From Candidatus Zixiibacteriota bacterium (lineage in GTDB: Bacteria; Zixibacteria; MSB-5A5; GN15; FEB-12): a DNA stretch of 64,000 bases. Position numbers and translations under genes: made by a program. Of this stretch, positions 1,378 to 64,000 are shown piece after piece. Each line of letters begins with the position of its first letter. Position 1 is the stretch's first letter. The notes under the pieces are model-generated. The model worked only from the letters and a program-made list of their open reading frames with translations. It had not been told where the DNA came from and did no database searches. The stretch spans positions 127 through 64,126 of the forward strand of contig JACZXB010000012.1 in the NCBI GenBank assembly GCA_022571845.1, written 5' to 3'.

Positions 1378-1380
1378 CGT

Positions 1381-2235
1381 GAAGAACTGGCTGAGTATGA
1401 GCCGGCGTTTGAGAAACTTGAAACTGAACTTAAAGTAAAGCTTCTGCCCCGTGACCCTGACGACGACAAGGCAGCCATTGTTGAAATTCGTGCCGGTACC
1501 GGCGGAGACGAAGCCGGTCTGTTTGCAGCTGACCTGTTTAAGATGTATCAGCATTTTGCGGATTCCAAAGGCTGGACTATAGAAGCACTGAGTACCAGCC
1601 CTACGGCAGTCGGCGGCTTTAAGGAAATTATCTTTTCAGTTTCCGGAGACGACAGCTACGGCCATATGAAATATGAATCCGGAGTTCATCGCGTACAGAG
1701 AGTACCACAGACTGAGACTCAAGGCAGAATACATACCTCGGCGGTGACAGTGGCTGTATTTCCCGAAGCGGAAGAAGTTGATATTGATATCAAAGAGAAT
1801 GAACTAAAAATCGATGTTTACAGGTCTTCGGGGCCGGGCGGTCAGTCTGTTAATACCACAGATTCGGCAGTGCGCGTTACACATATTCCGACCGGACTGG
1901 TAGTAACCTGTCAGGATGAGAAATCTCAGCTAAAAAACAAAACCAAAGCTCTCAAAGTTTTGCGTGCCCGGCTGATGGACAACATTAAGAAAGAACAGCA
2001 GGCCAAGATGACCGAAGAGCGCCGCTCAATGGTATCAACCGGTGACCGTTCGGCGAAAATCAGAACTTATAATTTTCCTCAAGGACGGGTGACCGACCAC
2101 CGCATATCTTTAACGCTGTATAAGCTTGATGGAATTTTAGCAGGCGATGTAGATCCCCTGATAGAGCCTCTCAGAGAATTTGACCGCCAGAAAAATCTTG
2201 AGAGGCAGGCCAAGCCAAAAGCAGAGGCCAAATGA
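1381..2235 (+). CDS. prfA: peptide chain release factor 1, 5'-truncated (about 100 N-terminal aa missing)
   Basis: Motifs seen: [38 protein letters not shown] (PxT region), [16 protein letters not shown] (GGQ) and [14 protein letters not shown]. The track ORF segment 1117-1380 is high-GC read-through, not RF1. Confidence 0.9.
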
Positions 2236-6701: not shown

Positions 6702-6711
6702 AATTATAATT

Positions 6712-6751
6712 GTAGGTGAGGAGCCCGCCTCGGTGGGTGCGCCTGACCTAC
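6712..6751. repeat. palindromic repeat, family C (GTAGGTSAGG...CCTGACCTAC)
   Basis: gtaggtgaggagcccgcctcggtgggtgcgcctgacctac lies directly after the FG-GAP stop. Related copies are at 52654-52722. Confidence 0.7.
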
Positions 6752-6816
6752 TTAGAATAGGAAGAACCATTCCGTGGGCGGCAGATGTCCTCATTGCCCC
6801 TTTGGCAAAACTATTC

Positions 6817-6875
6817 AACCCTTTCGACCCTTTCCGCCGAGGCGGACTCAGGACGAGCGCAGGCTCATGGTGACG
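6817..6875 (-). repeat. composite family A repeat (reverse orientation)
   Basis: ccctttcgaccctttccgccgaggcggactcaggacgagcgcaggctcatggtgacg is nearly identical to 20311-20367. Confidence 0.85.
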
Positions 6876-6927
6876 TAAATGCCTTCGGCACTTCGTTAGG
6901 CGGGCTACACTGCCACAAAAAGCAGTA

Positions 6928-6955
6928 GTAGGGGCTGAATATATTCAGGCCCTAC
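6928..6955. repeat. imperfect palindromic repeat, family D
   Basis: gtaggggctgaatatattcaggccctac, an inverted-repeat hairpin in the spacer before purL. Confidence 0.5.
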
Positions 6956-7018
6956 AAATACTAATTCCAACATCAATCCGATTGATTCTCAGAAACTGAA
7001 GCACTATATTCACGCCCT

Positions 7019-9259
7019 ATGGCAGATTCCTTGAATCAACCCAAAGTCACGCCCGAAATAGTCAAACAGCATGGGCTGAGCGAAGAAGAATACGATAAAA
7101 TTAAAGAGATTTTGGGACGTGAGCCGAACTTCACCGAGCTGGGCATATTTTCTGTAATGTGGTCGGAGCATTGCAGTTACAAGAACTCCATAGCCCTGAT
7201 AAAGACTCTCCCCCGCGATGGCGAGGCTATTTTGGCTAAAGCCGGTGAAGAAAACGCCGGTGCTGTTGATATCGGCAATGGCCAGGCAGTCGTTTTCAAA
7301 ATCGAGTCACATAATCACCCCTCGGCAGTAGAGCCGTATCAAGGAGCAGCCACCGGTGTCGGCGGCATACTTCGTGACATTTTTACAATGGGCGCCCGTC
7401 CGATCGCAGCTTTGAACTCACTTCGGTTTGGCCAGCTCGATAACCCCAGAGTGCGCTATCTGGTCGACGGCGTAGTTCGTGGCATAGGCGATTATGGTAA
7501 TTCTTTCGGGGTACCGACTGTTGCCGGCGAAGTTTATTTTGATGAATCCTATACCGGCAACCCGCTGGTCAATGCCATGGCGGTTGGAATTGTCAAAACA
7601 GATAAAATTGTTTCGGCCGTGGCCAAGGAAACCGGCAGCCCGATTATGATTGTCGGTTCCAAGACCGGCCGCGACGGTATTCACGGTGCTACCTTTGCAT
7701 CGGTGGAAATCAGCCAAGAGTCTGAAGAAAGACGGTCATCGGTCCAGATAGGCGACCCCTTTACAGAAAAATTACTGCTGGAAGCAACTCTGGAAATAAT
7801 CGACCAGGACTTGATAGTTGGCATTCAGGATATGGGAGCGGCCGGGATTACCTGTTCATCTTCGGAGATGTCTGCCAAAGGCGAGTGTGGTATTGAAATA
7901 GACATAGAAAAAGTTCCCGTTCGCGAAGACGGCATGACGCCTTATGAGATACTGCTTTCTGAATCACAGGAGCGGATGCTGGTCTGTGTCAAAAAGGGCT
8001 GCGAAGAGAAAGTCAGTGAGATTTTCAAGAAGTGGGACCTTGAGGCTGTTATAATCGGCCAGGTGACGGACGATAAATTGATGACGATAAAACTTGATGG
8101 CCAAATAGTCTCGCAAATTCCCTCGAATGATTTAGTGCTCGGTGGCGGAGCGCCGGTCTACACTCGCGAAATCAAGAAACCAGACTATATCGACTCTGCC
8201 GAAAAATTAAATTACGATGATTACAAACTTAATATTGATTGGAACAGCGCCCTTCTAAAATTGCTGTCCTCCCCTAACATCTGCCACAAAGGCTGGGTCT
8301 TTGACCAGTACGATTCAACCGTGCGTACAAATACGGCGGTTGGACCCGGCTCCGACGCTGCTGTCATGCGCATCCGAAAAACTCGCAAAGCTCTGGCTAT
8401 GACTACCGACTGCAACGCCCGCTATTGCTATTTAAATCCCAGAATGGGTGCAATTTCGGCTGTTTGTGAGTCGGCCAGAAATATCGTTTGTTCCGGCGGC
8501 AAACCTCTGGCTGTTACCAATTGCTTAAATTTTGGCAATCCCTATAAGCCGGATATTTATTACGGCTTTTCCGAAGTGATAGCCGGCATGGCTGAAGCCT
8601 GTCTGGCACTTGATACACCTGTCACCGGCGGTAATGTTTCATTCTATAACGAAGATCCCCAGCGGGCGGTCTTTCCGACACCTGTAATTGGTATGGTTGG
8701 TCTGGTTGAAGATATTTCTCATATTACTACCCAGACTTTTAAGGATGACGGTGACGCGATTTTACTTGTCGGTGAAAACAAAAATGAACTGGGAGCATCG
8801 GAGTATCTCCACACTCTCTTTAATCAAACTAAAGGCAAAGTACCAGCGCTTGACCTTGACTGCGAAAAGAAATTGCAGAGCGCTCTGTTGGCTGCGATTC
8901 AAAAGGGCCTGGTCAAGTCTGCCCATGACTGCTCAGAGGGAGGTCTGGCTGTGGCTATTGCTGAGTGCTGTATCTCTGAGAGAGAAAATATGGTTGGTGC
9001 CTCGATTAAAATCAGTGATGAGATACGCTCCGATTGCCTTCTGTTTGGAGAAACACAGTCGCGCCTTATTTTAAGCTGTGACAGCAAAAACGAGAATGAA
9101 TTAATTGCTTATTTTACAAAGCAAGGCATCAGCTGCAAGAACATTGGCACAACTGGTGGTAATAAGCTAACAATCAACGGCCTAGTCTCGGTCGACCTTG
9201 AGAAAATGGCAGAGGCATTCTATAATGCGCTGCCGGAGCTGATGGAAAAGGTCGCCTGA
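7019..9259 (+). CDS. purL: phosphoribosylformylglycinamidine synthase subunit PurL (FGAM synthase II)
   Basis: 746 aa. Motifs: [41 protein letters not shown], and the duplicated AIR-synthase-like architecture. Confidence 0.95.
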
Positions 9260-20310: not shown

Positions 20311-20367
20311 ACCTTTCGACCCTTTCCGCCGAGGCGGACTCAGGACAAGGCAGGCTCAGGGTGACGA
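20311..20367 (-). repeat. composite family A repeat
   Basis: acctttcgaccctttccgccgaggcggactcaggacaaggcaggctcagggtgacg. Near-duplicate of 6817-6875. Confidence 0.85.
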
Positions 20368-26973: not shown

Positions 26974-27040
26974 GTCGAAACCATCCCGAGTACGTGAGGT
27001 TTCGACCTACTCACTGTCCTGAGCCTGTCGAAGGGTGACG
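26974..27040. repeat. family H hairpin followed by a family A repeat
   Basis: gtcgaaaccatcccgagtacgtgaggtttcgac + ctgtcctgagcctgtcgaagggtgacg. Confidence 0.8.
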
Positions 27041-46159: not shown

Positions 46160-47155
46160 TTAAAATCTGTAACCGGCGCTGACTCTGAAAGTTTCACCGA
46201 GGTCATCGTGATGCAGGTAAGCAAAATCTACGGTGATGTTCTTAACATCCACCCCGCCCCCGGCGGTAAACTTGCCTATATCAAACCCGGCCCGGCCAAA
46301 AACTAATTCCCGGTATCCCAGCTCCAGTCCAAAATGCGTATCAAGCGACAACGAGCCGCTCCAGTATTGGGCGGCCGTTTTGAGACTCTCAAATTTCAGA
46401 TCGCCGCTGGCTGCAAAACGCGCCGAGACCTGATTGAAATACTTTTCAATCATGAGCCCCGGTTTAACCGTCGGGAAAATTGATTCGGTGCTTGATTTAG
46501 TCTCGGTCCTCTGTCCGCTTGAGTCTGCCGGTTCAATGACAGTGCCGCCGCCGTAGCGGATAAAACCCGAAGTAACGTCGCTGACCATCAAGCCCAAGCG
46601 AAAGGCCGCACTTAGCTGATAGAGCAGCCCGGCGTCCATAGTAAGTCCCTGCCCGGACTCAGGTCCGATGTCACGATAGATTATTTTGGCGCTCATGCCA
46701 AAATCTATTTTTTGGCTAATTTTTCCTGAGAGCGATGCTGCCAGCAAAATATCAGCGTGTGATTCTTCGCGCACTACATAAGGGCGATTGAACTGGTCGA
46801 GCTGAGTAATTTTGATGCCGCCGCCACCCAGATAATAAAAATAAAACCCGAAAGCGCTAATCTTGCCTTGATCTCTTGGCCTGGAGTCGATATAAGCGAC
46901 ATAGTCATGGTTAAGTAGCGATCCGAAAGTCTCAGCATGCATCGCTACAATATGCCGATGGTTCAAATAATTCATGCCGGCCGGATTCCAGTAAGAGGCG
47001 GTACCGTCAAAAGGACCGGCTATAACAGCTCCGCCCATGGCAAGTCCGCGCGCGCCGACACCGAGTGAAAATGACTCACCCGAAAACTTGGCGGCTTCGG
47101 TGCCTGAGCACAAGAGCAGAACAGCTACCAGTATTAATTTGAGCTTACAAGTCAT
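46160..47155 (-). CDS. outer-membrane beta-barrel protein (PorV/FadL-like by motif only)
   Basis: Signal peptide MTCKLKLILVAVLLLCSG, then GVGARGLAMGGA...YWNPAG. C-terminal residues are aromatic (..GYRF). Confidence 0.65.
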   Translation of the reverse strand: MTCKLKLILVAVLLLCSGTEAAKFSGESFSLGVGARGLAMGGAVIAGPFDGTASYWNPAGMNYLNHRHIVAMHAETFGSLLNHDYVAYIDSRPRDQGKISAFGFYFYYLGGGGIKITQLDQFNRPYVVREESHADILLAASLSGKISQKIDFGMSAKIIYRDIGPESGQGLTMDAGLLYQLSAAFRLGLMVSDVTSGFIRYGGGTVIEPADSSGQRTETKSSTESIFPTVKPGLMIEKYFNQVSARFAASGDLKFESLKTAAQYWSGSLSLDTHFGLELGYRELVFGRAGFDIGKFTAGGGVDVKNITVDFAYLHHDDLGETFRVSAGYRF

Positions 47156-47220
47156 TCGATTATTGAATATCCCACTTTTTTCCTGAAACATCAAACAAAC
47201 GGAAATAGTTCTGAAAAATA

Positions 47221-47255
47221 AAAAAGCGGCTCGTTATTAGCGAACCGCTTTTTAT
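47221..47255 (-). terminator. rho-independent terminator after the HMA gene
   Basis: Stem gcggctcg/cgaaccgc (1 mismatch) flanked by A/T runs. On the minus strand the hairpin is followed by TTTTTATTTTT. Confidence 0.55.
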
Positions 47256-47282
47256 AAATCTATTTAATTCTGCAGTCGGCTA

Positions 47283-47957
47283 TCAGTTGGTGCCTTGCGC
47301 AGAAGAAGTCTTGATAGTTGTTGCTTTCTTAGCTGCACCACAAGTTTTGCCGGTCCAACCAATCGTGCTGGTTTTGGCATCAGTACTGACTGTTGCTACC
47401 GCCGGGATAATTTCTGCTTCAAAACCTCTGGCACTTACAGCTTTCAACAAAACTTCGCTGGATGCATTATCCGGATTGGCACAAACAACTGCATAGCCGG
47501 ACTTATAACAAACTCCGAGAACTTTGTTAACACCGTCAATGTTCATTAAGGCTGCCTTGATTGTGTTTTCACAACCAGCACAAGTCATCCCTTTGATTGA
47601 CATTTTTGTATAATTACAATCTTTAGCCGCAGCACATAACTCTGCGTGATTCGCTTTAACAGCAGCTAAACAGGCTTCAATCTGCTCAGGAGAGCAAGTA
47701 GCTGATGCCAGCTTGGCAGAAGTTGTTGAATTCTTGTAAGCACAGACTGACTTGCCGGCCAGGCTTCCGGAACTTTTCGATGAGGTCACGCTGGTAGTAA
47801 ATTTGACAGTTGTCTGAGAAAGCGAGCAGCCCGATTTGACCGAGGCTGTCTTGGCGCTGAATGAGCAGGCAGGATTGCTTTCACAAGCAAACGCAGCCAA
47901 AGCACCCATGGCCACAAAAGCCATCACTGTAAAACCGACAAATAGTACTTTTCTCAC
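47283..47957 (-). CDS. secreted heavy-metal-associated (HMA) domain protein with a Cys/Ser/Thr-rich N-terminal half
   Basis: Signal peptide. HMA motif MSIKGMTCAGCENTIKAALMNIDGV. Several additional Cys pairs lie upstream. Confidence 0.8.
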   Translation of the reverse strand: MRKVLFVGFTVMAFVAMGALAAFACESNPACSFSAKTASVKSGCSLSQTTVKFTTSVTSSKSSGSLAGKSVCAYKNSTTSAKLASATCSPEQIEACLAAVKANHAELCAAAKDCNYTKMSIKGMTCAGCENTIKAALMNIDGVNKVLGVCYKSGYAVVCANPDNASSEVLLKAVSARGFEAEIIPAVATVSTDAKTSTIGWTGKTCGAAKKATTIKTSSAQGTN

Positions 47958-48162
47958 AATGTTACTCCTTAGATAATTATGTAGTTTTCTGAAAGTTATA
48001 TTCTTTTTTCTAAGTTACCAGTTAAACAACGATCTGTCCAGCCCGTTCCCTGATTTTGGGAATAAATCGGCTATTTTATTATATCGCAGATTTAGCTATA
48101 CTCTAAAGTAATGAAGCAATTTACATGCGAACACCAACCCTGTTATTCCTACTCCTGTCTTT

Positions 48163-48219
48163 TCTATTGTTGTCTTTCCAGTCTATTGTTGTCTTTCCAG
48201 TCTATTGTTGTCTTTCCAG
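48163..48219 (+). repeat. 3 x 19-bp perfect tandem repeat
   Basis: (tctattgttgtctttccag)x3 runs into the hairpin element ttccagcgaaggctggaa. Located in the divergent HMA/arsC spacer. Confidence 0.9.
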
Positions 48220-48347
48220 CGAAGGCTGGAACCCATCTTCTCTTCGCGCAGACAGGAATCCATCCCCGAACAGGTTTTGCAGGGTCTTGTTCTCCGCCTG
48301 CGGAGGATGTGACCCTGTAGTTACGGACCAAAAACGGAGCTAACCAC

Positions 48348-48890
48348 TTGCGTATCTTAGTCTTATGTACCGGCAATTCCTGCCGCTCTCAGATGGCCGA
48401 AGGCTTTTTCAGAGCCTACGGCAACGATTCTATCGAGGTTCTCAGCGCCGGTCTGGAGCCCGGCGGAGTTAACCCCTTGGCTATCAAAGTGATGGCTGAA
48501 ATCGACATCGATATATCCGGCCATTCCTCGAACAATTTGAATGAATACCTGGAAATGGAATTCGATTATGTCATAACTGTCTGCGACAACGCCGCCCAAA
48601 AATGCCCGATTTTCCTAGGCCCAAAGGGTCACCCTGAGCGGACAAAGTCCCGCCAAGGGAGTCGAAGGGCGGACCAAGAAAGTCATCCTGCGCCACCCCT
48701 TGGAAGTCACCCTGAGCCTGTCGAAAGGCAACTTCCAGAACGTGTCCACTGGCCGATTCCTGACCCGGCCACCGCCCTAAAATCCACCTCCGAAAAGGCC
48801 GCAACCGAAGACGAAGTTCTGCAAGTATTCCGCAAAATCAGGGATGAGATTGAGCAGAAGATAAAGGCCTGGCTGAAAACTGCAAAATGA
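48348..48890 (+). CDS. arsC: arsenate reductase (thioredoxin-coupled, LMW-PTP fold) carrying an in-frame ~37-aa repeat-derived insertion
   Basis: TTG start after GGAG. Motifs LCTGNSCRSQMAEG, TVCDNAAQKCP, HWPIPDPA. An extra KGHPERTKSRQGSRRADQESHPAPPLGSHPEPVERQLPE lies between the last two motifs. Confidence 0.85.
   Translation: MRILVLCTGNSCRSQMAEGFFRAYGNDSIEVLSAGLEPGGVNPLAIKVMAEIDIDISGHSSNNLNEYLEMEFDYVITVCDNAAQKCPIFLGPKGHPERTKSRQGSRRADQESHPAPPLGSHPEPVERQLPERVHWPIPDPATALKSTSEKAATEDEVLQVFRKIRDEIEQKIKAWLKTAK
48627..48729 (+). repeat. cluster of three family A-type interspersed repeats inside the arsC reading frame
   Basis: ggtcaccctgagc[ggacaaagtcccgccaag]ggagtcgaaggg ... gtcatcctgcgccaccccttggaa gtcaccctgagcctgtcgaaaggc. 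Matches intergenic copies at 32729, 51722 and 27013. Confidence 0.85.
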
Positions 48891-48975
48891 ACTCAACTAT
48901 TTATGAACAAATTCGTAGTCTAAGGTGTAAAGTTGTTAGACCGCCAACAACAGCATTTCACTTCAATTTGAAAGG

Positions 48976-49872
48976 GTGTCAAACATGAATTATGACATTA
49001 TCAAAGTTTCTTTAGTGCGAAATTCACTACTTGCGATTTTCAGCATTACCATATTATCAGTTGCATCTGCTGCTAAGACTCACAAAGTAACATCTTCCTG
49101 GGTTGACCATGAATTCAGCATTGACGGCAACATGAAAGAGTGGTTCAAGGTTGAGTCAAAATATCTGTCTGACCAGGAGGCTTCCGTTTCGATTTGTAAC
49201 GACGAAAAATTTCTATACATTCTCTTCAAAACCAGAGAAGCAAAGTGGGCTCGAACTATCAAAATGACAGGGCTCAATCTGTATATTAATAAAGATGGCA
49301 AAAACAAAAAAGACTTCTTTATACGCTTCAAAGGCGGTCCAAACAACGCCCAGCTCAAAGCCATGGCCGGAGGCATGAATGAACGAGGATCCGGCGAGTC
49401 CCGAATGTCCCGCATGCCGGCTGATATTAGAAAAAAATACGAGCAGGCCATGAATGACAACACCCAAACGCTTATTTGTTCCATTAATGACAATGTCAAC
49501 AAAGTCGTACCGCTTGATGGCAGCGAAGGTCCGGCGGCAGCCTTTGATACCTCGAACGGGTTTTTTGTATACGAGTTTAAGATTCCTCTCGACAAAGGCA
49601 AAGATCGTTACTACGGCATCGGTATCGAACCGGGACATAAAATAGCCATCGGCGCCGAATGGGGCGACATGGGTGACTTCCGTCGCAGACAGGCGGGAGA
49701 ATTTGGCGGCAGACAAATGCCGGGTGGCGGAGGCAGACCACCTGGGGGCGGCGGATTTGATGGCGGACACCGCAGGATGGGCGGCGGCGGCCGACCAAAA
49801 ATGCCCACTAAGCAGGAAGTCTGGTTTAAAACCAAAATTGCTGTCAAAGCAGCAGCAGAAACTTCCAAATAG
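48976..49872 (+). CDS. secreted protein with a Gly/Arg/Pro-rich C-terminal region, unknown function
   Basis: Signal-anchor LLAIFSITILSVASA. Tail GGRQMPGGGGRPPGGGGFDGGHRRMGGGGRP. Start is GTG 48976 or ATG 48985. Confidence 0.65.
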   Translation: MSNMNYDIIKVSLVRNSLLAIFSITILSVASAAKTHKVTSSWVDHEFSIDGNMKEWFKVESKYLSDQEASVSICNDEKFLYILFKTREAKWARTIKMTGLNLYINKDGKNKKDFFIRFKGGPNNAQLKAMAGGMNERGSGESRMSRMPADIRKKYEQAMNDNTQTLICSINDNVNKVVPLDGSEGPAAAFDTSNGFFVYEFKIPLDKGKDRYYGIGIEPGHKIAIGAEWGDMGDFRRRQAGEFGGRQMPGGGGRPPGGGGFDGGHRRMGGGGRPKMPTKQEVWFKTKIAVKAAAETSK

Positions 49873-50108
49873 GAAGATTTAGTAGACTTTCAAGCTAAGT
49901 TAAAGTCCGGGACGAGATTGGGGAGAAGATAAGGGGGTGGGTGTACAAGCCCTTGCCGCTTAGTTAATATAGTGCTAGCCGCCATACAGAGCTTGTCCTT
50001 GGATTTGAAAAGAAGGCCAAAAGAAAAATATATTGATTTAAGTTTGTAATTTAGTAGTTTAGTAAGGGATAGTATATTCAATATTGAATTAAGAGACAAA
50101 TTCTTATT

Positions 50109-51548
50109 ATGAGTAACGAATTCAACAAAGCAGAATCTTTCGGTGCAGATTATTTGTTTGAGTTAAAGAAACATTTTGCGAGTAGAGGAATACAATTTAC
50201 TCAAAAAGTAGGCGAAGTAATTGAATCTGCAGCATCAAAAGCGTACGACACAGGAACAGGAGTCTACGATTCAACCTTGATGGCATCTTTAATCAGGAAT
50301 AAAACAGTCATTCTTAATGTGCTTGATATCCACGAAATTGACATTTCTACGTACTTGAATGAGATGGATGAAGATTCCTCTCTTTCTTGGTCTGAATATT
50401 TCGATGAGAGTACGCTCAATGAAATCGTCGATGAACTGTGCTTACTGCTTGTTCCGGACAGAGTTGGACTTCAATCTTTTCGCGTTTTAGACTTGGCTGC
50501 TGAGATCGCTAGTTCAAGTCACGGCAAGGTAATTGATACCAAGTCTTTTATTTTGGCTCTTTTTAGGCAGGCAACGTCATTTGAACGGAAGCTGACGCGC
50601 GAGACTATTAGACAGTTAGGGAAAACTAATTTGAGTGATCAGGTATACGACAGAGTCCAATCAACTGTTGGAGAAGATGAACTTAAGGAGTGGTATGGTA
50701 AAGAATTTAGTATTATAGATGCTCCTCTTGAGTGGGTCTTGGAGGAATTGCGAGATGGCTGCGTTTCTGGTGTAAGTCCAATCCTAGAGAAATTGGCAAA
50801 TAAGTGTAAAAACTTAAGATCACTTGCGAAAATAGAATACGACTTAAAAATGGCGAATGTCATAGAACCTTATCTTGATGATACGAAATTTGCTCTCATT
50901 AGTACAACCAAGGGCATAATCTTTAGAGAATTCTCGTATTTAAACTCATATAAAGTACTTGGTTTTCCGGAGCCTTCTGCTGTAAAAATAAACGTTCTAA
51001 GTAGCGGAAAATTCATTAGATATGAGGAAATTGACGAGTTTGAAGAGCTTATTAATTTACCTAATGTTTCAGAATATGATTTACAGAAATTCTTTGAACA
51101 CCGCCCTTGGTTTTTGCTAGGGAGCAACTACGAAAGACTTCACAGTCAACTTGCGCTCGTAAATGATACTGATACAGAATTGGTTCCAGACTTTTTTGCT
51201 GAGAAAATCGGTACAAGTTATTCTGATATTATTGACCTTAAGAAGCCCACGGAAAAAGTAATAGTTGGGCCAAAACATCGAAGAGGATTTACGGCTGCTC
51301 TAACAAATGCACTTAATCAGCTAAGAGAATATCGAAATTACTTTGACGACTCCAAAAATAGAAAAGCATTTTATGCGAGGCATGGGCTATACGCATTTCG
51401 ACCAAATGTCTGTGTTGTAATTGGAAGATCGAGTGACTATTTGGACCATATTGAGAGGATTAAGATTGATGACGAATACAAGAACATGAAAGTTGTTACT
51501 TACGATGATATCCTTGTCAGATCAAAGAGAATGGCTCTTGTAATCTAG
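50109..51548 (+). CDS. Shedu-like (SduA/DUF4263-type PD-(D/E)xK nuclease) defence protein with an unassigned N-terminal region
   Basis: C-terminal ~160 aa: EYDLQKFFEHRPWFLLGSNY...ELVPDFFAEK...SDIIDLKKP...ALNQLREY (QxxxY)...VCVVIGRS...MKVVTYDDIL. The gene is AT-rich and isolated. Confidence 0.7.
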   Translation: MSNEFNKAESFGADYLFELKKHFASRGIQFTQKVGEVIESAASKAYDTGTGVYDSTLMASLIRNKTVILNVLDIHEIDISTYLNEMDEDSSLSWSEYFDESTLNEIVDELCLLLVPDRVGLQSFRVLDLAAEIASSSHGKVIDTKSFILALFRQATSFERKLTRETIRQLGKTNLSDQVYDRVQSTVGEDELKEWYGKEFSIIDAPLEWVLEELRDGCVSGVSPILEKLANKCKNLRSLAKIEYDLKMANVIEPYLDDTKFALISTTKGIIFREFSYLNSYKVLGFPEPSAVKINVLSSGKFIRYEEIDEFEELINLPNVSEYDLQKFFEHRPWFLLGSNYERLHSQLALVNDTDTELVPDFFAEKIGTSYSDIIDLKKPTEKVIVGPKHRRGFTAALTNALNQLREYRNYFDDSKNRKAFYARHGLYAFRPNVCVVIGRSSDYLDHIERIKIDDEYKNMKVVTYDDILVRSKRMALVI

Positions 51549-51721
51549 ATGCTTGCCAATCCACAAACATTTACAACTGCATTATGCCGGGTCGCCCACG
51601 GGTTACCGTGGGTTCATATCGGATTTAAGCAATCGCTCAGATTTTCTGCTTGTATGATCAGCTGGATTTCACGTCAGGCGTGGAATGACAATACTCAATT
51701 AGGATTACAAAATCATAATGG

Positions 51722-51885
51722 GTCGTCACCCTGAGCCTGTCGAAGGGGGCGACCCAAGTATTTAGCAACCATACTTCGACAAGCTCAGTATGACTTAGAT
51801 TGTGAGTTCAGTATGACAATTTCAAAAGATGGATTCCCGACTGCCCCGAGACTGCGCTCGGGATTAAAACTCGGGAATGACAAAT
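51722..51885. repeat. repeat cluster: inverted pair of family A copies plus a nested hairpin element
   Basis: gtcgtcaccctgagcctgtcgaaggg (+), ttcgacaagctcagtatgac (-), and gatggattcccga[ctgccccgagactgcgctcgggattaaaa]ctcgggaatgac. Confidence 0.8.
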
Positions 51886-51893
51886 CCTATACC

Positions 51894-52262
51894 TTACCTC
51901 TTCCGCTTCTTCGGGTGTTCTTCGTAGGCGAATTTGCCCGACTCGGCCAGATAATAGCGTATTGACAATACCGATGACGGTCTGTCGTGGCTATACACCA
52001 TAACTTTGATATGCTCAGAGTCATTCAACGAACGACGTACCAGCCAGCAACCCGGGCGAACATGGCGCTCGACTTCGATACAGTTGCCAGGATGAGGCTG
52101 ACGGCCGGGAGGTCTGCCCGGATACCAGATTCGGCACTGTCCCGGAGCCGGAAGATGACCCGGAGGAATGCCTAAGTGAGCCGGACGGCCTTTGTTCTCT
52201 TTTACCACCACTACCTCATGATCGTGGGGCCTTTTCGATTTGACTATGACAGTACAGCTCAT
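51894..52262 (-). CDS. small Pro/Gly/Arg-rich probable lipoprotein, unknown function
   Basis: 122-aa ORF. The in-frame upstream sequence encodes KSKFQLLGLLLVTFAISAVLMSC (signal/lipobox-like), but there is no ATG/GTG/TTG there. GC is higher than in the neighbours. Confidence 0.55.
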   Translation of the reverse strand: MSCTVIVKSKRPHDHEVVVVKENKGRPAHLGIPPGHLPAPGQCRIWYPGRPPGRQPHPGNCIEVERHVRPGCWLVRRSLNDSEHIKVMVYSHDRPSSVLSIRYYLAESGKFAYEEHPKKRKR

Positions 52263-52540
52263 CAGGACTGCTGAGATTGCGAATGTTACCAGAAGCAGTC
52301 CGAGCAGTTGAAATTTTGACTTTTGGTGATTATTAATTAAGGCCTCTTATAGTTTTGTTGAATATGGCTATAGGCTATAATGTCGGCTGTTTGGAGGGAT
52401 GTTTTAGGCTACAAAATGACTACTATATTTCTTCAAAATACTCTGCCGGCCAATAATAATGAGAGAATAGGACTCGCAAAAATTGTATGAAAACTATTAG
52501 ACCAAAAGTAAAGTATAACAAAACGAACCCATTCTAATTG

Positions 52541-52755
52541 CCTTTCCAGCGTTTTAATCCCGAGCGTAGCCGAGGGGAAGGCTGGAATCCATCCCTCCCG
52601 CCTTAACATCTCGTTAGTCCCGAGCGGAGCAGAGGGGTGGGTTTAAGTTCCCTGTAGGTCAGGACCCTTGTGGTCCTGACGATTTAGAAACAAAAAGTCA
52701 GGAGTACAAGACTCCTGACCTACAAAAGATGGATTCCCGCCTCCGCGGGAAAGAC
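52541..52755. repeat. dense cluster of at least 5 palindromic repeats from several families
   Basis: tttccagcg[ttttaatcccgagcgtagccgagggg]aaggctggaa; ttagtcccgagcggagcagagggg; gtaggtcaggacccttgtggtcctgac; gtcaggagtacaagactcctgacctac; gatggattcccgcctccgcgggaa. Confidence 0.8.
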
Positions 52756-52854
52756 AGAAGGAGCGATGAATATTGAAAAGTTAGTAATTGACTATACATT
52801 TTAAGCGATTATTTTTTTAACAGTAAATCTATTTTATTAGGATAATTTTGTAAT

Positions 52855-53226
52855 ATGCACTGGTCAGTCTGGGTCATCTCTATTCTTGCTTTCATTGTAG
52901 CCATCTGGTTTGTGATAGATGGCGCTGCGGCTTTCATAACTGGCAATTACATAACGCCAAAATCCGGGGAGTATGCCGGCCAGCTTGGCACCTGGTCTAA
53001 AGTTGTAAGTGCCACAGGCATCGCCCCACGCTCAGGATTGATGAGAACCATATTTCTGCTCTATGGCATATTCTGGATTGCCATAATAGTCAGCTACCTG
53101 TTCAGATTACCCTGGGCACCGGCAGCAATGCTAATAGCCGCTATCGGGTCATTATGGTATTTGCCCTTCGGGACGTTACTCGGACTAATTCAGATCGTTC
53201 TGTTGATAGTTTATCGGATCAAGTAA
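52855..53226 (+). CDS. small 4-TM membrane protein, unknown function
   Basis: 123 aa with four hydrophobic helices. Confidence 0.6.
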   Translation: MHWSVWVISILAFIVAIWFVIDGAAAFITGNYITPKSGEYAGQLGTWSKVVSATGIAPRSGLMRTIFLLYGIFWIAIIVSYLFRLPWAPAAMLIAAIGSLWYLPFGTLLGLIQIVLLIVYRIK

Positions 53227-53290
53227 CTGAGTGTTTCAAAACACAAGTATTCGGAGTACTGCTCAATCAATTGAAAAGAAAGTAACTACG

Positions 53291-54379
53291 TCACCTCTTT
53301 TTGCGGTGGCTGACGAAATCCCAGATGACGAATTCGCCCAGATTATCGACCGATGAAAAATACGCCCGGCCCTTGTTAAGTTCGGTCAGTCGTTCTACAA
53401 AGCGCCGCAAATAGGGGTCGTCGGTGACCATAAAAGTTGTAATAGGGATTTTTTTCTTGCGGCAGTAAACAGCTTCATCAAGAGTGCGGTTGACAATAAT
53501 CGGGTCAAGGCCGACTGGGTTGCGGTAGAGCTGGCCATTGGGACGGGTAATCATCGAGGGCTTGCCGTCGGTTATCATAAATATCTGTTTGTTGACATGC
53601 TTTTTGGTCATGAGAATCTGACGCGCTTTGCGCAGACCCTCTTGAGTATTTGTATGAAACGGCCCCACCCCGACATAGGCCAGGTCTTTTATGGCAATCT
53701 GCCTGGCGTTGTCGCCGAACAAGACGATAGACAAATCATCTTTCGGGTATTTGGTCAAAATCAATTGTGTAAAGGCCATGGCGACTTGTTTGGCCGGTGT
53801 GATACGGTCTTCGCCGTATAGTATCATCGAGTGCGAAACATCTATCATTAAAACAGTAGCGCACGAGGTGGTCCGCTCGGCTTCGTAAACTTCGAGGTCT
53901 TGCTCCGACAAATTCAGGCTCAGATCACCTGAGCGGGTGATGGAGTTGAAAATTGAAGCAGTGTAATCGATATATTTGTAAGAATCACCAAACGTGTAGG
54001 GCCGACGCTCCGGTAGCAGTTCTTCGGATGAGCCGCCTTCGTATGGCAGCGGATGCTGCCCTCTGCCCGATGATTTCAACTTTTGAAAAACTTGCTCAAA
54101 GGCGTCAATGCGCAAATTCCGCTCACCTTTGGGCGTCAGGCCGAAACCCTTTTTTGTTTTTTTGATAAGCTTGTTTTCTTCAAGCTGCTTTTTGAATTCT
54201 TCGAGGTCGTGCTCGGCGCTGATATAGCCCTCTTTCTGAAGGTCGTCCATCATTTTGAGAACATCCCCAACATTCCCGTTTAAGCGCATCAGCAGAAAAT
54301 TATAAATAGACATCAGGTCGGAGAGACCTTTTAGGGCTTTAAATAGTGCATCATCCCATTTGGAATAGATAAACTTCAC
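53291..54379 (-). CDS. vWA-domain protein (CoxE-like)
   Basis: MIDAS motif MIDVSHSM, then ...TDG. The vWA fold is in the C-terminal 200 aa. 4-nt overlap with the upstream AAA+ gene. Confidence 0.82.
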   Translation of the reverse strand: MKFIYSKWDDALFKALKGLSDLMSIYNFLLMRLNGNVGDVLKMMDDLQKEGYISAEHDLEEFKKQLEENKLIKKTKKGFGLTPKGERNLRIDAFEQVFQKLKSSGRGQHPLPYEGGSSEELLPERRPYTFGDSYKYIDYTASIFNSITRSGDLSLNLSEQDLEVYEAERTTSCATVLMIDVSHSMILYGEDRITPAKQVAMAFTQLILTKYPKDDLSIVLFGDNARQIAIKDLAYVGVGPFHTNTQEGLRKARQILMTKKHVNKQIFMITDGKPSMITRPNGQLYRNPVGLDPIIVNRTLDEAVYCRKKKIPITTFMVTDDPYLRRFVERLTELNKGRAYFSSVDNLGEFVIWDFVSHRKKR

Positions 54380-55866
54380 GCAGTCCCTCCCATTCCGCGC
54401 AGCATGTCGGAGAGAACATCGGCGTAGCGCACGACTGTATCTTCGGTTTCACGGGCGATTACATTATTGTGATGCAGGCCCTCAAGAACAAACTCCATGC
54501 GCAGCAGCATTTCGCGCTTGTCTTTGACGTCGAAATATTTTCTGACTAATGCTTTTAAGCCCGCAACATCTTCGAGGCATTTTTTGTATTCTGAAAACGG
54601 CATATCGTCTGATAGTTCCAGCCTTTTGCCGGCAGCAAAATAATCAACAATAGCTTCGTAGGGGTTTTCCGGAGCAGGTCTGTCCGGGTCGGGTCTTTCT
54701 TTTCTGGGACGCGGGAAATATTGCAAGAAGACCGTATTCAAAGCCTGACCGATCAAGTTTTGGGCGACAATGACAGAACCTTCCTGTTCCCCCTCGTAAA
54801 CAAGTTCGATCTTTCCTGAAACCGATGGAATAACGGCATAAATATCGCAAACGCGCGGGAACAGGTCGTTGTCTTGGTTGCGGAGCGCTCTCCGTTCAAT
54901 ATTTGACTGCAGATTTTCGTAAGCAGAGATTGATACGCGGGCGGATACACCTGATGTCTGGTCAACATACTCACTGGCGCGCGCCTGAAATGAGATTTCT
55001 TCTATAATATCATTTATAAAATCAGGAATTCTGATTTTTTCATTATGCCGGGAGAACTCGCTTAATGTTATCTCTTTGGCTTCTTCGACAGTCTTGGGAT
55101 AGTGAGTCAATATCTGTGAATCAATTCTGTCTTTGAGCGGTGTGATAATGTTGCCGCGGTTGGTGTAATCTTCGGGGTTGGCTGTAAACACGAGCAGCAT
55201 ATCCAGCGGCAGACGCAGCGGAAAGCCGCGTACTTGAATGTCATTTTCTTCGAGAATGTTTAAGAGTCCTACTTGAATGCGAGGCTGCAAATCCGGAAGT
55301 TCGTTGATTGCGAAAATCCCCCTGTTGGTGCGCGGTATTATCCCCCAGTGAATGACCTCTTCGTTGGAGATGTCTAACTTTTCTCTGGCTGCTTTTATCG
55401 GGTCGATATCACCAATCAAATCTGCTATGGATACGTCGGGTGTAGCCAGTTTTTCGTTAAAACGTTGTTTAGCTGACAACCAGACGATAGGAGTCTTTCC
55501 ATCATGTTCGGCAATCAGTTTTTTTCCCATTGGTGATATCGGGTTAAACGGATCTTCGTTTAAGAGAGTGCCTTCAATCACGGGCAAACTTTCGTCAAGA
55601 AGATTGTCAAGCTGTCTTATTATTCTGCTTTTGGCCTGCCCCCTCAAGCCCAGTAGTATAAAGTTATGCTTTGATAAAATTGCATTTTCTATTTGCGGCA
55701 CGACTGTCCTGTCAAATCCAACTATGCCTGTAAACGGCTTCTCCCCTTTTTGAATTTTTCGAAGCAGGTTTTCCCGGAGTTCATCTTTGACCGTCCGGCT
55801 TTTCCAGCCGGAGTTTTTAAGTTCACTAAGTGTTTTAGGAAGCGCTTTGGCCACGTCTCTCCTCAA
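54376..55866 (-). CDS. ChlI/BchI-like AAA+ ATPase (Mg-chelatase subunit I family)
   Basis: Variant Walker A LLGLRGQAKS, Walker B region GIFAINELPDL, and FTANPEDY..ITPLKDRI matching the BchI NPEEG..LLDRF block. Confidence 0.8.
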   Translation of the reverse strand: MRRDVAKALPKTLSELKNSGWKSRTVKDELRENLLRKIQKGEKPFTGIVGFDRTVVPQIENAILSKHNFILLGLRGQAKSRIIRQLDNLLDESLPVIEGTLLNEDPFNPISPMGKKLIAEHDGKTPIVWLSAKQRFNEKLATPDVSIADLIGDIDPIKAAREKLDISNEEVIHWGIIPRTNRGIFAINELPDLQPRIQVGLLNILEENDIQVRGFPLRLPLDMLLVFTANPEDYTNRGNIITPLKDRIDSQILTHYPKTVEEAKEITLSEFSRHNEKIRIPDFINDIIEEISFQARASEYVDQTSGVSARVSISAYENLQSNIERRALRNQDNDLFPRVCDIYAVIPSVSGKIELVYEGEQEGSVIVAQNLIGQALNTVFLQYFPRPRKERPDPDRPAPENPYEAIVDYFAAGKRLELSDDMPFSEYKKCLEDVAGLKALVRKYFDVKDKREMLLRMEFVLEGLHHNNVIARETEDTVVRYADVLSDMLRGMGGTA

Positions 55867-61797: not shown

Positions 61798-62616
61798 TCA
61801 TTTGCATAGAGGACAACTACTACGTTTGCACTCATCCCAACAGGCCCCATAGCAGTTACTAAAATTCTCACATCCTCCACACATTTCACATTCCTCATAA
61901 ATGTGGCAACTCTTTGGCCTGGTTCCCACTTTCTTTTTTGCCTTTTTTTCCTTCTCTTTCTGTCGTTCCTTATTAATATCAAATACACGTATAATCTGAA
62001 CCCTATACATATTATCCCATCGCCTAAAAGTGATACCAATGAATTGATCATCAACTTTCCAATGATGGGTTATAATTAAGCCTCCTTTTCCATCTCTTTT
62101 GACATCAGGACCAGATATTCCATCTGATTTTGAAATTACTCTAAAAACTGAATCAGCGTGAAGACCTTTATATATTGTCAGACCTTGAATTTTAAGGCTC
62201 TCAACTTTTTCCCAAAATGATCTCCTGAAAGCAAATGATTCCCATTTAGCATCATCATAGGTGTAATCGATCACTGGATCGATTGGTCCAACTGTAATTT
62301 GAGCGATTCTATTAGAAAGCGAAGGTTTTCCAAAAACTGAAATTTCGTATTTATTAATATCTGAAGTCTCTGCCAGTAACTTGATGGAATTTACAAATTT
62401 TCTCGTGTCTTTTGGGTTACTCCAAACTTTGTTACTTAGCCAAACGAATGCTTGGCTTGAACCATATGTATCAATAACAATGTTCTCGGATAAATAATGG
62501 GCATTACAAAGCTCCACTAAAGCAGCCTCAAAACTGCTGTTATCTGCTTTAATTAATTGACTAGTAGTGCCAATTACAAGAAACACAATTAATACAATGA
62601 AATTGTATCTGTTCAT
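61798..62616 (-). CDS. secreted protein with a Lys-rich linker and a 9-Cys C-terminal tail, unknown function
   Basis: Signal anchor FIVLIVFLVIG, linker KERQKEKEKKAKKK, tail SCHIYEECEMCGGCENFSNCYGACWDECKRSSCPLCK. The gene is AT-rich. Confidence 0.65.
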   Translation of the reverse strand: MNRYNFIVLIVFLVIGTTSQLIKADNSSFEAALVELCNAHYLSENIVIDTYGSSQAFVWLSNKVWSNPKDTRKFVNSIKLLAETSDINKYEISVFGKPSLSNRIAQITVGPIDPVIDYTYDDAKWESFAFRRSFWEKVESLKIQGLTIYKGLHADSVFRVISKSDGISGPDVKRDGKGGLIITHHWKVDDQFIGITFRRWDNMYRVQIIRVFDINKERQKEKEKKAKKKVGTRPKSCHIYEECEMCGGCENFSNCYGACWDECKRSSCPLCK

Positions 62617-62869
62617 AAGATTCTCCCCTGTAAGCGCTAAGAATTATGGATTAAGATGATTATGACCAGTACGAAAATCAAGCTAAATAGTCAAGAATTT
62701 GGCTTTCGAGGCATACCGAATTGCCTGCAATACGTTGCCTTGTAGAATTTGGCGCAACTGCACAATCAGCTATTGAATTTACTTTGGATTCGAATCGCTT
62801 AGATTTCGCTGACACTTAGCCGAAAGAGGCAAATATATTTGCCCGGCATGGGGTTAAGAAATTTAACAC

Positions 62870-62926
62870 TCCCCTGTAGCTCTGTTGGTAGAGTCCCGCT
62901 ATGGTGGCATTAATCAGCGGGTCGTA
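62870..62926 (+). pseudogene. tRNA-Asn 5'-half remnant (no T-arm or 3' acceptor strand)
   Basis: tcccctgtagctctgttggtagag matches the acceptor and D arm of the intact gene. It is then followed by a disrupted anticodon region and unrelated sequence. Confidence 0.7.
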
Positions 62927-62965
62927 ATGATCCACTATTTATACTTTCCAATCTCTTAAATTTCG

Positions 62966-62993
62966 TTGACATTTAACCGAAAGAAGCTAATAT
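62966..62993 (+). promoter_or_regulatory. sigma70-type promoter of tRNA-Asn
   Basis: TTGACA (62966-62971), 16-nt spacer, TAATAT (62988-62993). About 33 nt upstream of the tRNA 5' end. Confidence 0.5.
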
Positions 62994-63026
62994 ATTTGCC
63001 CTGCATTGGGTTAAGAAATTTGACAC

Positions 63027-63099
63027 TCCCCTGTAGCTCAGTTGGTAGAGCAATTGACTGTTAATCAATGGGTCGTAGGTTCGAGTCCTACCGGGGGAG
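63027..63099 (+). tRNA. tRNA-Asn (anticodon GTT)
   Basis: Manual fold: acceptor TCCCCTG/CGGGGGA, D arm GCTC..GAGC, anticodon stem ATTGA/TCAAT with loop CTGTTAA, T arm GTAGG-TTCGAGT-CCTAC. No encoded CCA. Confidence 0.9.
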
Positions 63100-64000
63100 C
63101 ATAACTTGCATTTGTATCCCTTCAACGATGTGGTTGAAGGGTTTTCTATATGTGGGACATAGGGTTCTGTCGTTTAGAGTACAGTTCGATAGTAAAGACT
63201 TTATGAGATCGCGCTTTTCACTTGAGTTTTGTTTAACATAAAGAGAGTGAGCGTTTTGCGCCAGTTCTACAATTTCCATGCCCTCTTCGACATAATCTCT
63301 GCTATTTGTATCAAGACTTTCAATTCGGTCGCTAATTGTATCCTGTTCTGCTCGCCATCGCTTAGACAATTCAATCCAATACTTTTCGTCAATTATGCCA
63401 TCCAGCCTATCTTCATATGCCTTATCTAAGCGTATTTGATGTGAATTATACAGGCGTTTCAGACGCATTAGCTCCGTTTGACGGTACAACCCTTCATTTC
63501 GGCTACTCTCTTTGAGAGCCGTGACTATCCAATCGGCTGCTTCGTCGTCAAGCTGCATCCCTTTGAGCTTCTCTGCAAACAAAGTGTCTATTATATCTTC
63601 CCTCACATACGGCTGTTCACACTTGCCACGTCCGCTAGTGCAGTGGTAGCAAATGTACTTCTCTTTCTTAATTTCAGCTGTTATTTGACACCCACAACGT
63701 CCGCAAATCAATAACCCAGAAAAGATAAAAGTATCCTTTCGAGTTTTTGGCTTTCCGTCTCTGCGAAGCAGTGATTGTACTTTGTCAAACAATGATCGAC
63801 TAATCAATGGTTGATGGTTGCCGGAGTACCTTTCATTCTTCCAAATGAACTCTCCAAAATAGAAGGGGTTCTTGAGAATCCACTCAACCATGCTTTTGGA
63901 TAATTGCATCCCATTTGTGCTGTTTAGTCCATCCAAATAGATCTTCTTCCTTAACTTACTAAGGGAATAATCGCCGGAAGAATACAGTTCAAATAAGTTT
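63088..64000 (-). CDS. large serine recombinase, C-terminal part (5' end and catalytic domain beyond the right edge)
   Basis: The frame stays open upstream of the track start to base 64000 (..NLFELYSSGDYSLSKLRKKIYLDG..). Recombinase domain ILKNPFYFGEF, Zn ribbon CGRCGCQ...CYHCTSGRGKC, and a coiled coil. The last 12 nt overlap the tRNA 3' end. Confidence 0.85.
   Translation of the reverse strand, partial: NLFELYSSGDYSLSKLRKKIYLDGLNSTNGMQLSKSMVEWILKNPFYFGEFIWKNERYSGNHQPLISRSLFDKVQSLLRRDGKPKTRKDTFIFSGLLICGRCGCQITAEIKKEKYICYHCTSGRGKCEQPYVREDIIDTLFAEKLKGMQLDDEAADWIVTALKESSRNEGLYRQTELMRLKRLYNSHQIRLDKAYEDRLDGIIDEKYWIELSKRWRAEQDTISDRIESLDTNSRDYVEEGMEIVELAQNAHSLYVKQNSSEKRDLIKSLLSNCTLNDRTLCPTYRKPFNHIVEGIQMQVMLPR

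Follow-up and report, generated by a model that had tools for sequence, protein, structure and literature searches.

We examined a window of 64,000 nucleotides from a Candidatus Zixiibacteriota genome assembly (contig JACZXB010000012.1; the window is the whole stretch of DNA analysed, and coordinates are given within it), in which a complete sduA-like gene at 50109..51548 on the + strand encodes a predicted fusion of a Clp_N-like domain to a Shedu nuclease domain. The open reading frame (ORF) begins with ATG and continues intact through 479 amino acids (aa) plus a stop codon, with the same coordinates and frame that a first-pass annotation, made from the letters of the DNA, had given for a stand-alone ORF. 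The peptides quoted in that annotation when it proposed a Shedu-like nuclease (EYDLQKFFEHRPWFLLGSNY, ELVPDFFAEK, SDIIDLKKP, NQLREY, VCVVIGRS and MKVVTYDDIL) are all present in the translation, as are both N-terminal segments that it had likened to the Clp N-terminal repeat.

The nuclease lies at the C-terminus. An SduA_C/DUF4263 PD-(D/E)xK nuclease domain at aa 306-479 (51024..51545, + strand) was recognized by Pfam, PADLOC, Foldseek and profile searches of the Protein Data Bank (PDB). The Pfam model PF14082 (SduA_C) matched aa 320-469 with E=1.8e-16 and 61.2 bits (cut-off 27), covering profile positions 2-159 of 159, and 12 PADLOC SduA models matched, the best with E=7.3e-26 over aa 301-469. 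Because of these E-values the similarity of the C-terminus stands far above chance, and both searches bear out the earlier SduA/DUF4263 assignment. Pfam matched SduA_C in all 25 relatives of the protein as well. The proposed layout was right in placing the nuclease at the C-terminus but not in allotting ~330 aa to the N-terminal part, since the domain begins at about aa 305-320. An NCBIfam scan of the protein returned no family, and a Pfam MLD match (E=0.076), which lies within the nuclease domain, was set aside as noise.

A single-sequence phmmer search against PDB sequences gave no match at E<=10; profiles were therefore needed, and the likeness to solved Shedu proteins is one of profile level only. 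A profile of the C-termini of the family (A4), searched against PDB sequences, matched Bacillus cereus Shedu (8ti8, E=7.7e-9, and also 8ti9) and Escherichia coli SduA (8ps4, E=5e-4). In the alignment to 8ti8, whose chain numbering is that of native B. cereus Shedu +2 (an offset checkable via V248/Y252 of the paper), D361 of PDFF (motif II; 51189..51191, +) falls on D249, D376-L-K378 (DLK, motif III; 51234..51242, +) falls on E264/K266, and Q404 of Q404-LRE-Y408 (motif IV; 51318..51332, +) falls on Q295. The PDFF Asp, the DLK Asp and Lys, and the QxxxY picked out in the first pass thus coincide residue for residue with catalytic positions of B. cereus Shedu, whose catalytic set consists of E204, D249, E264/K266 and Q295 and which needs D249 and E264 for defence (10.1101/2023.08.10.552793). 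K378, Q404 and Y408 are invariant among the aligned relatives, and position 376 is either D or E. E322 (51072..51074, +), also family-invariant, is the probable motif I glutamate, as judged solely from the 8ps4 alignment, in which E. coli SduA has a Glu opposite it. With its predicted catalytic motifs complete, the domain is predicted to be a catalytically competent nuclease.

An AlphaFold2 (AF2) monomer model built from the 25 relatives (mean predicted local distance difference test score, pLDDT, 81.6) gave a consistent picture. Its top three PDB matches in Foldseek were 8ti9 chains, the best two with E=1.2e-5, probability 1.00 and a target-normalised template-modelling (TM) score of 0.69, so that the PD-(D/E)xK fold proposed for the C-terminus matches the solved Shedu nuclease domain. 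Together, the sequence matches and the modelled fold make it almost certain that ORF 50109-51548 encodes a Shedu-family nuclease.

The two solved Shedu proteins differ from the Zixibacteria protein mainly outside the nuclease. B. cereus B4264 Shedu (8ti8/8ti9, Type 1A) shares with the Zixibacteria protein the nuclease fold and motifs II-IV, the single-gene organization and the order N-domain, linker, nuclease; its N-domain, however, is a beta-rich sPC4/Whirly fold, thought by Gu et al. to bind single-stranded nucleic acid, whereas here the corresponding region is an all-helical Clp_N-like double repeat, and its linker is a four-helix spiral where ours is predicted to be a helix plus a beta module. 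Deletion of the N-domain de-regulates B. cereus Shedu (10.1101/2023.08.10.552793), and by analogy the logic of autoinhibition by N-domain and linker is likely shared. E. coli SduA (8ps4/8ps5) is homologous in its nuclease (E=5e-4), the alignment running from around motif I through to the C-terminus, but carries an N-terminal clamp that is reported to sense DNA ends (10.1101/2023.08.10.552762), and lacks the Clp_N-like domain present in the Zixibacteria protein.

The N-terminal region opens with a long, family-specific helix at aa 2-24 (50112..50180, +; AF2 pLDDT 62-91), followed by two Clp_N-like repeats of four helices each. Repeat 1, at aa 28-91 (50190..50381, +), reads QFTQKV...GVYDSTLMASLI...VLDIHEIDISTYL and was delimited by profile comparison to ClpC1/ClpC, aligning to both ClpC repeats in the solved N-domains. 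Repeat 2, at aa 122-187 (50472..50669, +; FRVLDLAAEIASSSHGKVIDTKSFILALF...), was placed by the ClpB alignment and the ClpC register. Between them lies an insertion at aa 92-121 (50382..50471, +) that was modelled with low confidence (pLDDT 51-64) and differs widely in length among relatives. On first inspection about 9 of 29 homologue clusters seemed to share this N-terminus, and an alignment of 25 sequences yielded the pattern LTxKAxxxxxxAxxxA...GLxxxxS...DxxG, then a variable spacer, then LxxAxxxAxxxxRxxIxSxDLLxA.

A hidden Markov model of the N-terminal parts of 22 family members (profile A3), searched against all PDB sequences, connected this region to the Clp unfoldases. The top 32 distinct PDB sequences were all N-domains of ClpC, ClpC1 or chloroplast ClpC1, with E-values from 5.6e-14 to ~1e-9; the best was ClpC1 5gui (E=5.6e-14), with ClpC at ~1e-12. 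The E. coli ClpB N-domain (1khy) matched at E=5e-5 over both repeats (profile 23-167, chain residues 5-143), and ClpA N-domains at E ~0.015. Among 1.84 billion sequence representatives the same profile had 5089 matches at E<=1e-3, and about 20 of the best-scoring 150 representatives listed belong to the family. Ten sampled top matches outside the family were all true multi-Clp_N proteins, with Pfam Clp_N E-values down to 1e-137, and seven further matches of 410-480 aa, new relative to the homologue search and covering the whole profile in a single stretch, all carry SduA_C (7/7).

The structural evidence pointed the same way. An AF2 model of the N-terminus alone (pLDDT 86, predicted TM score 0.85) shows a helix, four helices, the poorly predicted 30-aa insertion and four more helices, after which additional helices take up about 50 aa. 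Its top 31 PDB matches in Foldseek were all Clp/Hsp100 N-domains, mostly at probabilities of 0.9-1.0, from ClpC, ClpC1, ClpC2, Hsp104, Leishmania Hsp100, ClpD and ClpT1; the N-terminal part of the full-length model likewise matched Clp/Hsp100 N-domains. The modelling and fold search proposed for the N-terminus thus found Clp/Hsp100 N-domains at high probability, but with weak E-values (0.05-0.3 for the isolated N-terminus) and mostly high deviations that are weighed below. For Clp_N homology the sequence profile is decisive, and the modelled fold is consistent with it without being independent proof. On this basis aa ~28-187 are assigned to a diverged, non-canonical two-repeat member of the Clp_N superfamily. 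What the first-pass annotation offered as a weak resemblance to Clp repeats becomes, for both segments, statistically supported homology (A3, E=5.6e-14), and of the ~330 aa that it called unrecognised, ~160 aa can now be recognised as Clp_N-like and ~120 aa (188-305) remain without assignment.

Like the N-domains of ClpC, ClpC1, ClpB, ClpA and Hsp104 (PF02861), the Zixibacteria domain consists of two tandem four-helix repeats, and the Clp_N core LT.KA...A...A...; ...GL...; L..A...A....R..I.S.DLL.AL is conserved in the Shedu family. It differs in its extra N-terminal helix, the 30-aa insertion and the ~50 aa of extra helices, and in having no AAA+ motor: no AAA domain was detected in the protein, the remainder of which is linker plus SduA_C. 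Clp_N repeats outside unfoldases have precedents. ClpN repeats are fused to vWA in the vWA-MoxR 'FtsH ternary' conflict systems (PMC7159879), and among the sequences that we collected, a 773-aa protein (P0065) carries eight Pfam Clp_N repeats followed by TIR_2 (E=9e-15). Like this Clp_N-TIR protein, the ClpN-vWA proteins, ClpC2 and the multi-Clp_N proteins, the Zixibacteria protein has Clp_N outside an unfoldase; in those proteins, however, any effector is TIR or vWA and the repeats number 4-9 and are canonical, with strong Pfam matches, whereas here a Shedu nuclease is joined to one diverged pair.

What such a domain might bind can be judged from its relatives. The N-domain of ClpC is an autoinhibitory module that anchors the protein in its inactive resting state, and release comes with phospho-arginine (pArg), MecA, MdfA or cyclic peptides; in ClpB and Hsp104 a hydrophobic groove of the N-domain binds unfolded proteins (PMC12583610). 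The most literal transfer of this knowledge would have the Shedu domain read pArg-tagged proteins as ClpC does, coupling proteotoxic stress to DNA cleavage, and its best sequence matches are indeed N-domains of the ClpC type, among them structure 5hbn with bound pArg. We aligned the Bacillus subtilis ClpC N-domain, with an 8-residue linker filled in, to the family profile in glocal mode, which placed both repeats in register. The ClpC pockets are formed by T7/E32 and T105(T81)/E106, with E32 and E106 defining them (PMC12583610). The threonines are kept: the counterpart of T7 is T31, a position that is T or S in 22/22 relatives, and that of T105 is T144, S or T in 21/22. The glutamates are not, however, as E32 corresponds to S55, acidic in 14/22 relatives, and E106 to K145, acidic in 0/22. 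At residue level, with K145 for E106 and S55 for E32, the pArg reading fails. Because the equivalents of E32 and E106 are lost, the protein, as far as its sequence tells, is not a canonical phospho-arginine reader; a sensor of pArg is largely excluded, and the chance that the domain works in that way is very slim.

Between the repeats and the nuclease, three further helices at aa 188-235 (50670..50813, +) are found in the closest relatives only, and a linker helix with an E-P motif plus a small beta module at aa 236-305 (50814..51023, +) is conserved family-wide. P254 is invariant in 25/25 sequences and E253 in the 10 closest, and AF2 placed a helix at 236-252 and strands at 260-293 with pLDDT 55-77. 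Residues 188-305 have no match in Pfam or in the profile searches of the PDB, where Clp and Shedu proteins were the only hits. By inference, aa 236-305 may correspond in role to the dimerisation (linker) region of Shedu.

Across the family this linker and beta module is conserved better than the Clp_N part, a pattern that also suits another explanation, in which the Clp_N-like region is purely structural or serves oligomerisation and the target is discriminated by nuclease and linker. That the conserved Clp_N positions are mostly core, that Type 2 Shedu proteins have no N-domains (Gu et al.) and that E. coli SduA is reported to sense DNA ends (10.1101/2023.08.10.552762) all fit such a scaffold. 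Against it stands the persistence of the two-repeat architecture: the majority of the 25 family sequences keep it although the 22 aligned N-termini are 13-28% identical, a sign that the domain is under selection. Nor are Clp_N domains known to bind nucleic acids, and the de-regulation of B. cereus Shedu by N-domain deletion also argues for more than a structural part. We regard a mere scaffold as rather doubtful; if it were one, the finding would reduce to one more Shedu homologue. A putative sensing role for the Clp_N-like domain is the reading carried forward below.

We then turned to the genomic site. The Lon protease encoded in the window shares 94-95% identity with its three nearest database homologues, of which the only one bearing a name comes from a 'candidate division Zixibacteria' MAG (metagenome-assembled genome), and the host is accordingly a Zixibacterium. 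Around the gene lie ORFs for a patatin-Omp85 protein, a protein with an HMA domain, an LMWPc/ArsC-like phosphatase and a small membrane protein, two ORFs without annotation, and a pair made up of VWA and AAA_5. Starting from the VWA neighbour, we fetched its metagenomic relatives and searched them by tblastn with 12 window proteins. Five contigs (L035, L036, L037, L040 and L046), with VWA proteins 69-81% identical to that of the window, between them keep the order g575-g433-AAA-VWA-[gap]-LMWPc-HMA-omp344-patatin/Omp85, each to the contig's end, and LMWPc lies beyond the gap in all five. In the window the corresponding strain-variable segment, from the LMWPc (ArsC-like) gene to the VWA gene, spans 48891..53290, a gap of 4.4 kb that holds hyp298, the Shedu gene, hyp122 and memb123, all four of which are absent from the five contigs by tblastn.

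Three of the relatives carry other cargo there. The gap measures 0.4 kb in L040 and 0.86 kb in L046; in L035 it is 1.9 kb and holds a DUF6680 protein, an IS200-like Y1 transposase (5872-6465, -; Pfam Y1_Tnp E=1.2e-10) and an unknown ORF; in L036 it is 2.8 kb with a DUF1574 plus MBOAT pair; and in L037 it is 2.2 kb with a 657-aa OLD-family ATPase nuclease (5956-7929, -; Pfam AAA_15 E=1e-20, PADLOC Old E=7.9e-23, with AriA and GajA-like PADLOC matches as well). Because the cargo differs at a syntenic site among relatives, the VWA-LMWPc interval behaves as a small hotspot that varies between strains, with a defence-type nuclease of another kind in one relative or more. The absence of the Shedu gene from the syntenic site in five contigs, together with its low GC content (below), underlies the view that it was probably acquired horizontally. 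The strain-variable site and the low GC speak for the earlier description of an acquired defence islet, and the lack of a recognised defence neighbour in the window speaks against it.

Two other proposals were rejected. Integration linked to a tRNA is not tenable, the only tRNA in the window lying at 63027-63100. The AAA_5/MoxR-like ATPase (496 aa) and VWA (362 aa) genes at 53291-55866 (-), whose start and stop codons overlap, are kept as a pair in all fetched Zixibacteria relatives and in many other contigs at 52-83% identity; conserved without Shedu and matched by no PADLOC model, they were not taken as linked to the nuclease.

The Shedu gene has a GC content of 0.378 and a GC content at third codon positions (GC3) of 0.34, compared with means of 0.461 (standard deviation 0.042) and 0.475 for the other 35 window ORFs of >=250 aa. 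It ranks second lowest in GC among the 36 (z ~ -1.9) and is thus AT-richer than its surroundings, as claimed before from G+C counts that proved exact (19 in 50101-50160 versus 37 in 48421-48480), yet it is no extreme outlier. The gene also has the AT-rich upstream region ascribed to it: the 109 nt before the ATG (50000-50108) are 23% GC (0.229). Within this stretch, TTGAAA-18-TATATT at 50005..50034 (+), about 75 nt 5' of the ATG, matches 10/12 consensus positions and is a candidate for the gene's own promoter; as the product of a consensus scan it constitutes no proof of function. Two other ORFs deserve mention with respect to composition. ORF 508-1554 (-), with GC 0.625 and GC3 0.871, overlaps the long ORF 1117-2235 (+) and is probably a spurious antisense frame that widens the spread of the GC distribution used. 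ORF 61798-62616 (-; 272 aa) has the lowest GC among the long ORFs (0.357; GC3 0.286), below that of the Shedu gene. No PADLOC model matches this ORF, which lies near the tRNA-Asn gene (63027-63100) and near a tandem direct repeat of 105 nt (62789-62893 / 62946-63050) and may be another acquired gene.

Downstream of the gene, and outside it, the spacer at 51549..52854 is rich in repetitive extragenic palindromic (REP)-like repeats, copies of which recur elsewhere in the window; one, GTCACCCTGAGCCTGTCGAAGGG, lies within the spacer at 51725-51747. A 56-nt inverted repeat (51828-51883 / 52538-52593, 80% complementary) flanks ORF 51894-52262 (-), which encodes 122 aa with a Pro/Gly-rich motif, PPGHLPAPGQCRIWYPGRPPGRQP, and has no Pfam or PADLOC match. 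Outside it there is also a direct repeat of 20 nt (51823-51842 / 52723-52742), and the whole may be a small mobile or miniature inverted-repeat transposable element (MITE)-like unit. The dense repeat cluster noted in the first pass thus comprises both the REP-like repeats and the 56-nt pair. A hairpin at 52653-52724, also in the spacer, gave the sole Rfam match on 47000-54000, a sub-threshold hit of a miRNA model. The transposase in L035 might be of the REP-associated type, which could explain the REP-like repeats. ORF 51549-51734, which starts at the Shedu stop codon, and the small or overlapping ORFs beside homologues (L006 11413-11583 and L004 66-641) were considered as partner genes and rejected, being unrelated and low-complexity-like.

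The upstream border of the segment also bears traces of repeats. The LMWPc/ArsC-like gene at 48348-48890 (+; 180 aa) contains an in-frame insertion of ~36 aa, especially at 48620-48740, that includes the REP-like repeat GTCACCCTGAGCCTGTCGAAAGG at 48706-48728, with other copies at 27013 and 51725 and an inverted copy at 20351; the Pfam match of the window protein ends at aa 89. The insertion is absent from the orthologue in L036 (13763-14197, 144 aa), and at this point those in L035 (6492-6995) and L037 (8083-8589) carry other insertions. A repeat element seems to have entered a loop of this enzyme in frame repeatedly.

To place the gene in a wider setting, homologues were compared in their own surroundings. 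The family is rare, with 29 clusters among 5.8 billion in the homologue search. Across eight contexts (the window plus P0003, P0004, P0005, P0025, P0009, P0010 and P0019) no neighbour is shared, and around 39 relative loci no homologue of any gene adjoining Shedu in the window turned up. The Clp_N-like Shedu gene is thus always a solo gene in the contexts examined, and the earlier statement that it is unlinked to neighbouring operons is matched by the lack of a conserved partner in the eight contexts. P0010 adjoins an Abi_2 gene, between housekeeping genes, and P0019 adjoins PIN and Gp49/HTH toxin-antitoxin pairs.

These contexts bear on whether the gene serves defence at all. It could instead be a housekeeping or repair nuclease of the NucS/EndoMS kind, or a selfish addiction gene carried by a mobile element. 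In favour of this, EndoMS has the fold nearest to that of the Shedu nuclease (10.1101/2023.08.10.552793), 2/25 members show weak NucS_C matches (E ~0.09), and most contexts are without defence genes. The NucS_C matches are not significant, however, and a housekeeping gene would hardly be missing from close relatives at the syntenic site or be scattered so patchily over phyla. Neither conserved neighbours nor repair partners were found, and no integrase, transposase or antitoxin-like partner adjoins the gene. A non-defence nuclease is therefore unlikely, and we give it a very small share of our confidence; a putative defence role, by comparison, we consider probable.

The family is patchily distributed over Zixibacteria, Chloroflexi, Planctomycetota and Alphaproteobacteria. 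A pattern-limited scan of GTDB, with one genome for each of 185,579 species, returned 25 Shedu relatives, among which the Clp_N-like plus Shedu architecture was clear in three MAGs, one from Chloroflexi and two from Planctomycetota. In a Pelagibius MAG repeat 1 only was matched, and four more MAGs gave weak N-terminal matches, three annotated as Planctomycetota and one an unclassified metagenome assembly. One family member, from a Chloroflexi MAG (P0014), is in NCBI nr. P0003 (L002 10001-11548) carries an extra DUF433 domain ahead of the Clp_N-like region, showing that further domains have accreted in the family.

In the literature that we searched, neither a paper joining Clp_N or the Clp N-terminal domain with Shedu or DUF4263 nor a member of this clade was found. 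Gu et al. distinguish 79 families of Shedu N-terminal domains in eight classes (1A-1G, 1X), with Type 1 proteins setting diverse N-terminal regulators on a common nuclease, a scheme into which the present protein fits. 'Clp' occurs 0 times in their main text, and the family could sit among the unnamed N1-N59 or in 1X.

Viral sequences were searched as well. Three distant relatives in IMG/VR match in the nuclease part only, the viral collections hold no family member with the Clp_N-like part, and a Foldseek search of BFVD with the N-domain gave nothing at E<3 and hence no candidate viral ligand or mimic. There is, then, no sign of a phage-borne family in the viral collections searched. The same searches bear on a guard model, in which the Clp_N-like domain would mimic the N-domain of a host Clp/Hsp100 protein, capture a phage protein evolved to bind or inhibit such N-domains or their adaptors, and thereby release the nuclease. 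The homology of the domain to ClpC/ClpB N-domains makes such a decoy conceivable, and stand-alone Clp_N paralogues (ClpC2) are among the solved structures; ClpC2 acts as a ligand sink. ClpC/ClpB N-domains are also the docking site of adaptors and of antibacterial peptides that deregulate ClpC (PMC12583610). The strong divergence of the domain, with a query that has no Pfam hit, a long insertion and lost pArg-pocket residues, argues against faithful mimicry, however; our analysis contains no evidence of phages targeting Clp N-domains in the host lineage, and neither the viral collections nor BFVD yielded a structural or sequence partner. We hold the decoy to be improbable. The broader notion that bacterial immunity uses Clp_N repeats generally as protein sensors, deployed here as a Clp-N decoy for a phage factor that hijacks or blocks Clp unfoldases or their adaptors, seems to us equally hard to credit; if it were true, prokaryotic immunity would have a 'guard of proteostasis' branch, to which this protein and the fusions of Clp_N to TIR and of ClpN to vWA would belong.

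The reading that we prefer joins these elements: a competent Shedu nuclease, acquired horizontally as a solo module against phages or other mobile genetic elements, and autoinhibited by a Clp_N-like sensor of proteins or peptides. As a whole we rate it slightly better than even. By analogy with B. cereus and E. coli Shedu, the nuclease domains would form a tetramer, which the N-terminal and linker regions would hold autoinhibited until the N-terminal domain bound a signal and the active site was freed for DNA cleavage. With a diverged Clp_N as sensor, the Clp/Hsp100 proteins suggest that the trigger would most likely be a protein or peptide and not a DNA end, because the N-domains of ClpC, ClpB and Hsp104 bind adaptors, unfolded segments and cyclic peptides; it might come from the phage itself, as one of its proteins, or be a proteotoxic signal that infection induces. 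Sensing of a protein or peptide through the Clp_N-like domain is, taken by itself, a tentative proposal whose chances fall a little short of even.

Several observations weigh against this reading. The query has no Pfam Clp_N (PF02861) match even at E<=10, and Pfam Clp_N matches only 3/25 relatives, weakly (best E=0.0028); it is because the Pfam model misses the query that the domain is called diverged and non-canonical. The Foldseek matches to the Clp fold have weak E-values (0.009-0.3), target-normalised TM scores of 0.45-0.6 and root-mean-square deviations mostly of 7-13 Å, which points either to a diverged fold or to an imperfect model. Conservation in the N-domain falls mostly on the structural core of the repeat, the pArg-pocket glutamates of ClpC are not kept (S55, K145), and ligand binding is argued from analogy only. 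Residues 188-305, which have no assigned family, could carry the real sensing function. In the window no other recognised defence gene stands beside the Shedu gene, and among the homologues Abi or toxin-antitoxin neighbours occur in only 2/7 contexts, the remaining ones being metabolic.

As to what the many N-terminal domains of Shedu sense, the two solved proteins point to nucleic acids, in the form of DNA ends and perhaps of overhangs that are single-stranded. A sensor derived from Clp/Hsp100 would be a different case, since the ligands documented for that domain are proteins, peptides and phospho-arginine. The Zixibacteria protein would offer a concrete and tractable instance of Shedu activation triggered by a protein or peptide. 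The nuclease system is known, and the pairing with this sensor is rare, with links to other fusions of Clp_N to effectors (TIR, vWA-MoxR). For Zixibacteria, a poorly studied phylum, it adds a putative defence gene and a variable hotspot.

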